From the UHGV virus genome UHGV-0172607: a stretch of 12,760 bases of DNA, one strand, 5' to 3'. Positions 8,831 to 10,063 of this stretch are shown piece by piece (position 1 is the first letter of the stretch; each line of letters opens with the position of its first letter). A model generated the notes under the pieces. That model was given only the letters and a program-made list of their open reading frames with translations. It made no database searches and was not told the origin of the DNA. A program made the position numbers and the translations under genes. This stretch comes from a virus.

Positions 8831-9082
8831 ATGGGCAAAGGCTGGGATGCCTCACTGAAAGCCGGGCGGCGTGACCGCCTACGTCAGGAGGTTCTGCACC
8901 GCATGGCCGGAGGTCCGCCCCCGAAACCGCTGGACTATACCGGCCATGACGGCACACACGCCAGCTACTACATGCGTGGCTGGAACTCCGTGGATACACG
9001 GGACATTTTCTGGCAGTGCCAGAAGTACAGGGAAAAATTCAATGTGGAAAAAGGTAATGAACAAAATTTTAAAACTGTGTGA
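8831..9082 (+). CDS. Hypothetical soluble protein (83 aa), translationally coupled to the muramidase gene
   Basis: ATG at 8831 overlaps the upstream stop context (TGATATG); hydrophilic, no motif recognised. Confidence 0.4.
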   Translation: MGKGWDASLKAGRRDRLRQEVLHRMAGGPPPKPLDYTGHDGTHASYYMRGWNSVDTRDIFWQCQKYREKFNVEKGNEQNFKTV

Positions 9083-9467
9083 CTGGCTGCTTTGTTCCCG
9101 ACTGATGAGAACCCCATGGCCGCTGGCCGGACTGACACTCTGCATGTTCATCATCAGCATGTTATGTGGCTGGCGATCGTTCGTGTTGATGTTGTTGTCC
9201 TTTGCCGGGGTGGTGTTGTTTTCATACAGCGCAAGCCTCGGGAATGTGCCATTTCGCCTGCTGCCTGAGGTCCGTTACCGGGCTTTTGGTCGCCACATCA
9301 TCGTGTGGTCATGGGTGGTCTGGGCGCTGGGATATTTCTGCTGCGTCTTCAGCACGCTGATGATGATGTCACCGGTGCATCCGGTGTTCTGGCTGTGTGG
9401 TGGCTGTTGCGGCGGTCTGCTCTGTCTTCAGCGTTATCTGTATGGAGGTTTCCCGTGGATCCGTTAA
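9042..9467 (+). CDS. Cys/Trp-rich multi-pass membrane protein (about 141 aa, 3-4 predicted TM segments)
   Basis: ATG at 9042 (or 9057). Hydrophobic stretches PLAGLTLCMFIISMLCGW, FVLMLLSFAGVVLFSY, HIIVWSWVVWALGYFCCVFSTLMMM, VFWLCGGCCGGLLCL. The 8871 start in the track is a non-membrane upstream extension. Confidence 0.5.
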   Translation: MWKKVMNKILKLCDWLLCSRLMRTPWPLAGLTLCMFIISMLCGWRSFVLMLLSFAGVVLFSYSASLGNVPFRLLPEVRYRAFGRHIIVWSWVVWALGYFCCVFSTLMMMSPVHPVFWLCGGCCGGLLCLQRYLYGGFPWIR

Positions 9468-10063
9468 CCCTTTCAGGCATCGCCTCTGTTCTGCTGAAAG
9501 CCGGGCCGGGGCTGATTCGTTCCGTCGGGCGCTGGTTTGGTGGCAGCACATCTGCCGCCGCTGACTCGGTGGCCGGTATGGTGGAAAGCGTCCGGGAAAG
9601 CCTGCCGGTGGCTGAACAGCAACGCATTCTGGAACAAAAACTGGTGATGCTGTCACCGGAGCAACTGATGCAGCTGGAAACCCTGAAAGTTCAGCTGCAA
9701 CAGCTGGAGGTGGAGCGGCAGAAGCTGGTGCTGGCTGACCAGCAGGCCGCACACCACGAACAGCAGGAAACCATCCGCAATGGTGACAACGCCACGGACA
9801 GCTATGTGCGCCAGACACGCCCGCTGCTGGCCCGCCTTTCCTGTTACAGCAGTCTGGCCTATGTGCTGTTGCTCTCCTGCGGCCAGATTGCCGGAGCCAT
9901 TGCCGGTGCCAGAGGTATCACGCTGCATATGCCATCACCGGACTGGGATATCACGCTGATGTTGCTTACCCCGGCGCTGGGCTATCTCGGTGTAAGAACC
10001 CTTGACGGCTTTGCCCGTTACAGCAAATCAAGCCGTCACAAAATGTCTGCGGGGCCGAAATGA
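9455..10063 (+). CDS. Holin-like protein with N-terminal coiled coil and C-terminal TM segments (3TM-holin-like, about 202 aa)
   Basis: GTG at 9455 preceded by GGAGG with 6-nt spacing. Gln/Leu-rich coiled coil (EQQRILEQKLVMLSPEQLMQLETLKVQLQQLEVERQKL), then TM segments LARLSCYSSLAYVLLLSCGQIAGAIAGA and WDITLMLLTPALGYLGV. The 9305 start in the track overlaps the previous gene and has no RBS. Confidence 0.5.
   Translation: MDPLTLSGIASVLLKAGPGLIRSVGRWFGGSTSAAADSVAGMVESVRESLPVAEQQRILEQKLVMLSPEQLMQLETLKVQLQQLEVERQKLVLADQQAAHHEQQETIRNGDNATDSYVRQTRPLLARLSCYSSLAYVLLLSCGQIAGAIAGARGITLHMPSPDWDITLMLLTPALGYLGVRTLDGFARYSKSSRHKMSAGPK

Follow-up and report, generated by a model that had tools for sequence, protein, structure and literature searches.

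A Mu-like Escherichia coli prophage lysis operon with a probable TeaA-type holin and a hypervariable four-transmembrane protein

The UHGV virus genome UHGV-0172607 carries, at positions 8831-10063 of the 12,760-nucleotide (nt) stretch analysed here (the window), three overlapping genes that lie directly 3′ of a gene for a GH108 endolysin. The window belongs to a transposable, Mu-like prophage of Escherichia coli. The best explanation of the block as a whole, which we hold with moderate confidence, is that it forms the central part of a Mor-activated lysis operon, encoding in order a soluble GH108 endolysin, a small protein resembling phage Mu gp18 (p83), a gp19-like protein with four transmembrane (TM) helices (p141, the 4-TM protein), a putative holin (p202), a TraR protein and a DUF2730 protein. 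A preliminary description of the window, based on its letters and open reading frames (ORFs), had already assigned the block to the lysis region, and the analysis supports this. Four features are central to the argument.

8233-8829, plus strand: soluble endolysin with Glyco_hydro_108 and PG_binding_3 domains (Pfam, 83 and 62 bits, both above cutoff)
8831-9082, plus strand: p83, small basic soluble protein, ortholog of phage Mu gp18
9042-9467, plus strand: p141, Cys/Trp-rich 4-TM inner-membrane protein with predicted N-in/C-in topology; dispensable, hypervariable accessory gene, probable diverged ortholog of Mu gp19
9455-10063, plus strand: p202, probable TeaA/GTA-holin-like holin, assigned from phrog_1544, a sub-threshold PF11351 match and gene context

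The endolysin matches phrog_315 (endolysin) and carries neither an N-terminal TM segment nor a signal sequence, its hydropathy profile showing no peak. Because it is soluble and lacks a hydrophobic N-terminus, a holin is required, and p202 is probably that holin. The protein matches phrog_1544 with an E value of 1.3e-59 (residues 1-199 on profile positions 1-192 of 200), and the same family is matched along its full length by TeaA of phage ICP1 (E 2.3e-53, residues 7-180 on profile positions 9-199 of 200). TeaA is an experimentally supported holin that in Vibrio cholerae dissipates the proton motive force and can be triggered by 2,4-dinitrophenol (DNP) (Hays & Seed 2020, PMC7182436). Both proteins have an M-x-P-L...WFGG segment in the N-terminal part, a helical region in the cytoplasm and two hydrophobic helices in the C-terminal part. 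They differ in that TeaA lacks the invariant polar motif QETIRxGDxAxDxYVRxTRP of p202, and ICP1 is a large lytic myovirus, unlike a Mu-like prophage.

p202 (202 amino acids (aa)) belongs to a family of 176-206-aa proteins comprising at least 667 clusters. AlphaFold2 places helices at residues 3-28, 31-47, 52-64 and 68-109, followed by a hairpin formed by residues 116-152 and 164-186. Hydropathy analysis identified three conserved, weakly hydrophobic segments in the family, one N-terminal and Gly/Ala-rich and two C-terminal, and the alignment shows an invariant motif, D-x-Q..H..QxTIRxGDxAxDxYVRxTRP, immediately N-terminal to the hairpin. By the positive-inside rule, the charge distribution puts the coiled coil and the C-terminal tail (+5) in the cytoplasm. 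The early view of this gene product as a long coiled coil followed by TM segments, resembling holins with three TM segments, gains support from the family it has in common with TeaA and from a sub-threshold match to PF11351 (GTA_holin_3TM), the family of the putative RcGTA holin rcc00556. The PF11351 proteins likewise have three weakly hydrophobic segments and an adjacent endolysin gene; the match to them is colinear, and 4 of 7 p202 family members give such sub-threshold colinear matches. A protein in BFVD annotated 'Holin of 3TMs', the single significant Foldseek match of p202 in that database (E 1.7e-5, 31% identity), forms a bridge between the two families; the fold search in the PDB gave no significant match.

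Gene context points the same way. An endolysin gene adjoins the p202-like gene in the 11 annotated contexts examined and in most of the further viral loci found by tblastn, and the soluble endolysins that p202-like genes directly follow are of four enzyme types: GH108 in the Mu-like prophages and Vibrio phage LP.1, an amidase in Vibrio phage 1.232.O, and an M15 or LD-endopeptidase in Janthinobacterium phage Donnerlittchen and locus L093. The endolysins of LP.1 and 1.232.O are signal-less, and the p202-like protein is the only membrane protein of either cassette, which argues that it supplies the holin function.

Other observations weigh against the holin assignment. The PF11351 score of p202 (20.4 bits, E 7.8e-4, residues 64-162) misses the gathering cutoff of 24.8; its relatives score 17-19 bits or do not match, no tested member exceeds the cutoff, and the precomputed Pfam field is blank in almost all of the 240 listed relatives. 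When the p202 family was aligned by hhalign with TeaA alone, the match was colinear with an E value of 4.8e-4, at a probability of only 32%. In Donnerlittchen a genuine LydA-type holin (PF16083, 49 bits) is encoded upstream of the endolysin, and the p202-like gene occupies the position usual for spanins. The prophage also lacks a recognizable spanin, as described below, and p202 could have another or an additional role.

Within the family, the loop joining the C-terminal pair of hydrophobic helices contains an insertion of 10 residues in enterobacterial p202 proteins (residues ~151-162 here, positions 9905-9940), and their first C-terminal helix is more hydrophobic than in relatives such as those of Vibrio and Shewanella. 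It is this lineage that carries the 4-TM gene, one enterobacterial-type contig (L066) being the exception.

The three genes of the block overlap in different frames, p83 and p141 by 41 nt (26 nt if p141 starts at 9057) and p141 and p202 by 13 nt, matching the range of 13-41 nt first reported for the block; p202 and traR overlap by 4 nt. The same preliminary description held the gene models to be uncertain, a doubt that is removed by the contrast among reading frames in the ratio of non-synonymous to synonymous polymorphism (pN/pS) and by stop codons upstream of the p202 start. In the E. coli allele group, pN/pS was 0.05 for p83, 0.25 for the middle gene and 0.20 for p202 in the annotated frames, compared with 0.85-6 in the two alternative frames. 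In the Klebsiella group the middle gene gave 0.125 and the other frames more than 2. The Klebsiella value for p202, which indels make invalid, was disregarded, as was a value for lys. The three overlapping genes in 8831-10063 are real and under purifying selection, and across relatives no different frame is conserved through 9300-9460.

These data bear directly on the proposal that the 9042-9467 ORF is an overlapping-frame artefact in GC-rich DNA and that the real gene is a longer p202 beginning at 9305. The p202 frame is indeed open back to 9305 in this allele, giving a 252-aa ORF, and off-frame reads typically yield products rich in Cys, Trp and Arg. However, the open extension occurs in this allele only: in nearly all relatives a conserved ATG, with AAGGAG or AAGGGG before it, has an in-frame stop 0-18 nt upstream, and we therefore rejected the longer p202. 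The start used here is a GTG located 6 nt after a GGAGG Shine-Dalgarno sequence, and this ribosome-binding signal 5′ of 9455 is conserved. The middle gene, moreover, shows pN/pS of 0.13-0.25 in its annotated frame against at least 0.85 in the other two, and the enterobacterial-type loci other than L066 retain the ORF together with its length and four hydrophobic helices despite only 27-38% identity. The artefact explanation is thus extremely improbable and is already refuted by the pN/pS values and the upstream stops.

For the middle gene, PGAP places the start at 9057 (a 136-aa product). We prefer 9042, because an ATG equivalent to it is common to both E. coli alleles and to Klebsiella, and because nucleotide divergence between the alleles begins there, exactly at 9040.

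The 141-aa product of this gene contains 10 Cys (7.1%) and 9 Trp (6.4%), enrichments with binomial probabilities of ~4e-6 for Cys (background 1.1%) and ~3e-4 for Trp (background 1.5%). The sequence LCGGCCGGLLC falls within its last predicted TM helix, so the Cys- and Trp-rich composition and the CGGCCGG stretch in a TM segment, both reported initially, are confirmed by the counts and by hydropathy. An AlphaFold2 model (predicted local distance difference test score (pLDDT) 79, predicted template-modelling score (pTM) 0.67) comprises an amphipathic helix at residues 2-18 and TM helices at 25-41, 44-65, 83-106 and 113-134. The N-terminus carries a net charge of +5, loop 66-82 one of +2 and the C-terminus one of +1, and the two short loops of 2 and 6 residues are uncharged; by the positive-inside rule this pattern indicates an N-in/C-in topology. 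Hydropathy, the model and the charge pattern converge on four TM helices, where three or four had been proposed, and on a predicted protein with almost no periplasmic exposure.

The Cys-rich stretch is a peculiarity of this allele and not a functional hallmark. Cys content across the 4-TM family has a median of 2.2% (range 0.7-7.1%), with this allele at the maximum, and CGGCCGG is replaced by CGGSCGG or CGGGCGA even in alleles that are 95-99% identical. A metal or disulfide site in CGGCCGG was accordingly rejected, as the motif varies among such close alleles and proteins from other genera have 1-3 Cys. The Trp content, by comparison, is kept (median 6.7%), and conservation in the family is concentrated in a cytoplasmic loop, S..LGNxPxRL, and in SWxxWxxG of TM3. 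The 4-TM protein has no Pfam match at E <0.1 and no NCBIfam or PADLOC match, and membership in a defence system was set aside because neither of the last two resources returned a match. Its only PHROG matches are phrog_12596 and phrog_2121, both unannotated for function. No significant structural match was found for the model in a fold search. It matches no Pfam or PHROG model of the canonical holin families, and the pair formed with p202 does not correspond to well-characterised holin and antiholin families.

The 4-TM family is small: an exhaustive HMMER pass over 1.84 billion representatives returned 12 matches, and a word-based search 4 clusters. An ORF of ~110-141 aa nevertheless lies between the gp18-like and p202-like genes in all the enterobacterial-type viral loci examined but L066, and its end, always W-I-(R/Q/L)-stop, runs across the start of p202. 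No other gene of the block changes nearly as fast, this one being 27-34% identical to its counterparts in Klebsiella-type loci where p202 is 70%, p83 80% and the endolysin 65% identical. E. coli itself carries two alleles of the 4-TM gene that are only 37-39% identical beside p202 proteins that are 94-99% identical. The divergent segment extends exactly from 9040 to 9459 between flanks that are 97-100% identical, a clean cassette swap between prophages. No positive selection was seen within the alleles (pN/pS <0.3). Shewanella phage MuM16-2 and Vibrio phage Martha have syntenic cassettes that lack the gene, and it is likewise missing from V. parahaemolyticus and Idiomarina prophages and from contig L066. 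Its absence from otherwise syntenic cassettes makes it an accessory gene, and we regard it as a dispensable, hypervariable one on this comparative evidence. A moron with its own signals was considered and rejected, since no promoter or terminator flanks the gene and its GC content of 55-57% matches that of its neighbours. The Shine-Dalgarno sequence of p202 lies within the 3′ end of the 4-TM gene, and the two genes are translationally coupled.

The likely relationship of this protein to phage Mu emerges from the gene before it. The preliminary description had included the 8831-9082 gene in its interval and left it undiscussed in its text. p83 is 69% identical to Mu gp18 over 72 aa (BLASTP, E 5e-38), and both proteins match positions 3-85 of phrog_2121, which identifies p83 as the gp18 ortholog. 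p83 has no match in the local Pfam copy, although its orthologs carry the precomputed annotation PF26867 (Phage_Mu_gp18). A profile search of genome contigs with a 4-sequence gp18 alignment found 11 loci. The family phrog_2121 (length 284) looks chimeric: positions 3-85 of its profile match gp18-like proteins, positions 91-273 match p202-like proteins, and the 4-TM protein matches with its C-terminal half at 198-259. This profile had suggested gp18::p202 fusion proteins, which we rejected: none of the fetched loci carrying both genes contains a fused ORF.

In Mu, gp18 is followed by gp19 with an 8-nt overlap, as in Klebsiella. Mu gp19 is annotated in the Mu record as a 120-aa protein with 4 TM helices and N-in/C-in topology, and we counted 6 Cys and 7 Trp in its sequence. 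Against Mu gp19, a hidden Markov model (HMM) of the 4-TM family scored 16.9 bits, in a match that covers 98 colinear positions and takes in a CGWR motif common to both; none of 3000 shuffles (global or local, 5- or 10-residue window) reached this score, the maximum being 14.2. The same HMM gave -0.9 bits against P2 LysA and 1.9 bits against ICP1 ArrA. By hhalign the family and Mu gp19 aligned colinearly over 101 columns (E 0.013). The 4-TM protein therefore agrees with Mu gp19 in its position after and overlapping a gp18 ortholog, in its 4 TM helices and N-in/C-in topology, in its length (120-141 aa across the two systems), in its Cys/Trp richness and in a weak, above-shuffle residual similarity. 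In family assignment they part: Mu gp19 belongs to phrog_4975 only and the protein here to phrog_12596, which is a point against placing it in the gp19 family. Overall we consider orthology between the fast-diverged 4-TM protein and Mu gp19 to be quite probable, and not proven.

This relationship matters for function. Genes 19 and 20 of Mu are middle genes (Chamblee et al. 2022, PMC9239132) that have been inactivated without effect on lysis (PMC9239132, citing Mathee & Howe 1993), and neither gp19 nor gp20 shows the DNP-triggered lethality of the lambda S105 and phage 21 S68 holins (PMC9239132). The same study showed Mu to be holin-less and left the function of genes 18 and 19 open. Because its probable ortholog fails the DNP test and is dispensable for lysis, the 4-TM protein is unlikely to be a holin, and we are fairly confident that it is not the holin of this operon. 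The earlier suggestion that one member of the pair may be something other than a holin thus finds support for the Cys/Trp-rich protein, both from Mu gp19 and from the absence of the gene in cassettes with soluble endolysins.

The opposite assignment takes the 4-TM protein as true holin or co-holin and p202 as a spanin substitute, an outer-membrane disruptor or a lysis regulator, and it draws on the outer-membrane step. We found no credible lipobox ORF for a spanin in the window (1-12760) or in the 42.5-kb prophage stretch of E. coli KFu019 (L085, 11900-42501). Two candidates were rejected: an o-spanin embedded in the +1 frame of p202 (9780-9959), which has no canonical conserved lipobox, and an internal LLSC lipobox at 9806 (p202 residue 142), which is not conserved. 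The missing spanin, the spanin-like position of the p202-like gene behind a LydA-type holin and endolysin in Donnerlittchen, and the published proposal that Mu gp19 and gp20 form a holin-antiholin pair (Samanta et al. 2021, cited in PMC9239132) all favour this assignment. However, the Vibrio, Shewanella, Idiomarina and L066 cassettes combine signal-less endolysins with no 4-TM gene, two-gene cassettes of a soluble endolysin and a p202-like protein exist, and Mu gp19 caused no DNP-triggered lethality. p202 itself has no lipobox, its large domain is cytoplasmic by charge and so cannot span the periplasm, and TeaA, in the same PHROG, behaves as a holin. We judge the reversed assignment to be very unlikely.

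With p202 as the probable holin, we propose the following course of events. p202 would build up in the inner membrane, its coiled-coil domain of ~100 residues lying in the cytoplasm, and at a set time would permeabilise the membrane and allow the signal-less endolysin to reach the cell wall. The 4-TM protein may tune p202 triggering, either within the membrane or through the conserved cytoplasmic loop LGNxPxRL; this last step is a guess to which we commit. An antiholin-like role of this kind is a tentative assignment made by analogy with ArrA, encoded upstream of TeaA, and with P2 LysA, encoded downstream of endolysin K.

In ICP1, ArrA is an antiholin (Hays & Seed 2020, PMC7182436), a 151-aa multi-TM protein encoded immediately upstream of teaA, so that in both systems a multi-TM protein of ~140-150 aa directly precedes the holin-like gene. 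The comparison with phage P2 is one of size and position. LysA is a 141-aa, non-essential protein ('affects timing of lysis') with several hydrophobic stretches, encoded just downstream of the endolysin gene K, and the next lysis gene overlaps it by 13 nt. LysA has four TM domains and acts as an antiholin. P2 differs in that its holin Y lies upstream of the endolysin and in having the spanin genes lysB and lysC, not a holin gene, after lysA. Several points pull against an antiholin-like 4-TM protein. ArrA belongs to a different PHROG and has no detectable homology to it (hhalign 0.07%; HMM 1.9 bits), and LysA shows no similarity (hhalign 0.5%; HMM -0.9 bits); homology of the 4-TM protein to either was rejected. 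Mu keeps gp19 without a p202-like gene, and lysis is unchanged when gp19 is lost. Finally, alleles of 37-39% identity beside p202 of 94-99% identity are unlike tight holin-antiholin co-evolution.

The ICP1 teaA neighbourhood (ICP1_2006_E, L095 13218-14774) encodes gp139 (one TM segment and a coiled coil), the multi-TM ArrA, TeaA and gp136 (60 aa, CxC...CxxC), and loosely mirrors the DUF2730, 4-TM, p202 and TraR proteins of the Mu-like module. A DUF2730-like nature of gp139, and of a 92-aa protein upstream of the endolysin in L093, was considered and rejected, the likeness being one of architecture only (hhalign 2-7%, no Pfam match).

The retention of gp19 in a phage with no p202-like gene and the divergent alleles beside an unchanged p202 favour another explanation, in which p83 and the gp19-like protein form a unit with no part in lysis, for example a lytic-phase superinfection-exclusion pair or one that modulates the host membrane. 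A small cytoplasmic partner and a polymorphic membrane protein would then merely be carried in the lysis operon. This explanation accommodates the overlapping gp18-gp19 pair of Mu, the inactivation of Mu genes 19 and 20 with no lysis phenotype, the status of the 4-TM gene as the fastest-evolving of the block, and the 9040-9459 swap next to an unchanged p202, which looks like balanced polymorphism. Set against it, the gene lacks its own promoter and terminator, shows no compositional anomaly and is translationally coupled to p202 through the Shine-Dalgarno sequence in its 3′ end. It stands behind a Mor-type promoter, which makes expression in the lysogen unlikely. The 4-TM protein has no PADLOC, NCBIfam or Pfam match, and its periplasmic loops of 2-6 residues offer little surface to meet incoming phage components. 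gp18 occurs with no 4-TM gene in Vibrio, Shewanella, Idiomarina, L066 and a Mu-variant locus (L181). A separate p83-gp19 unit is the main rival reading and, in our assessment, somewhat unlikely.

The assignment of the operon to Mor control rests on the region upstream of the endolysin gene, and the Mu-like setting on the genes around the block.

7096-7701: GemA
7698-8147: Mor
8153-8177, plus strand: dyad AAGCCGGTAAATCCGGC with a T-run, just 3′ of the Mor stop codon; likely Mor-dependent promoter element
10060-10287, plus strand: TraR/DksA C4 zinc-finger protein (Pfam PF01258, 42 bits)
10272-10577, plus strand: DUF2730 protein with an N-terminal TM segment and coiled coil (Pfam PF10805, 105.6 bits; hydropathy)

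The dyad, which we take to be a Mor-binding site, was scored as a terminator-like hairpin (8153-8173) in our scan, and the T-run carries the element to 8177. It is near-identical in the alignment of the Mu mor-Pm-gp18 region and in L181. The phage Mu record annotates both Pm, the Mor-activated middle promoter, and a predicted terminator at the matching spot after mor. Because the dyad matches the Mu sequence at the place where Pm is annotated, the lysis block appears to stand behind a Pm-type promoter that probably drives the endolysin operon. The prophage has a single Mor/C-family activator.

Positions 8100-10600 of the window are 98% identical to prophages of E. coli STEC388 and KFu019 and are matched in 54 of 5426 complete E. 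coli genomes. Around the block lie GemA, Mor, DUF2730, DUF3486 and a terminase and portal of Mu type. The TraR/DksA gene is a conserved neighbour 3′ of p202 in Mu-like prophages by synteny, and the DUF2730 gene is followed by VpaChn25_0724 and DUF3486 and then by the Mu-type terminase, portal and head genes. The block itself is an ordinary lysis-region gene set whose members belong to known, poorly characterised families. In STEC388, which holds 4 matching places, the annotation of a prophage copy that is otherwise 98% identical gives the GH108 endolysin (L001 1634-2230) as a pseudogene interrupted by an internal stop, and some copies appear to be decaying. E. coli 06-00048 contains the block (95.4% identity) on the chromosome (NZ_CP015229.1 1797445-1799945) and again on a 136-kb plasmid record (NZ_CP012497.1 127174-129673); this double occurrence could reflect a transposed Mu-like copy or an assembly issue.

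DUF2730 is the family of the Mu gp25 releasin, and here it is encoded in the same operon as a soluble endolysin, not one of the signal-anchor-release (SAR) type. The releasin model does not cover such a pairing, and DUF2730 with a non-SAR endolysin was explicitly left open and called an 'important next step' (Chamblee et al., PMC9239132).

The comparison with Mu also suggests where its middle genes came from. In common with this prophage, Mu has the Mor/Pm-type dyad upstream of its middle operon; it differs in that gp18 and gp19 are followed by gp20 and the late activator C, with no endolysin gene before and no p202-like gene after, and in that it uses a SAR endolysin, spanins and a releasin with no holin. 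The contigs of the L181 group look intermediate between the two arrangements. In L181 (IMGVR_UViG_2541047862_000001, 1948-2508), and also in L182 and L184-L187, a full-length GH108 gene lies between mor and gene 18, and gp20, C, a SAR endolysin (L181 3358-3876), spanins and a releasin follow downstream, with gp19 absent. The GH108 gene at this junction and the common Pm dyad suggest that the Mu middle operon 18-19-20-C is a remnant of an ancestral endolysin-gp18-gp19-holin cassette. The remnant would have formed after Mu acquired C, a SAR endolysin and spanins, an order of events that fits a holin-less Mu. We found no paper linking Mu genes 18-19 to such a cassette.

Taken to its full extent, this reading would make p83 in the cytoplasm, the 4-TM protein in the membrane and p202 a three-part holin-control module of Mu-like phages that lack spanins. 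As a holin of the TeaA type, p202 would in addition account for the breach of the outer membrane, by itself or together with DUF2730; the role of the polymorphic 4-TM cassette would be to fix a lysis time specific to each allele or to sense superinfection, in a manner resembling lysis inhibition; and Mu genes 18 and 19 would be a fossil left on the switch to a SAR endolysin, releasin and spanins. We know of no lysis inhibition in Mu-like prophages, and with all of its parts we regard this extended scheme as speculative and improbable.

Three things give the block its interest: the assignment of p202 as a TeaA-type holin, the polymorphism of the gp19-like cassette and the link to the Mu middle genes. 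Together they offer a concrete assignment for three 'hypothetical' genes that occur widely among the Mu-like prophages of E. coli, Klebsiella, Citrobacter, Yersinia and other Enterobacterales, and they tie the large, uncharacterised p202 family to TeaA, its only experimentally supported relative. They also draw attention to a spanin-less, DUF2730-bearing lysis system with a soluble endolysin, the case singled out in PMC9239132. For Mu itself they offer an origin for genes 18 and 19, which may be relics of an ancestral cassette that is still intact in this prophage.

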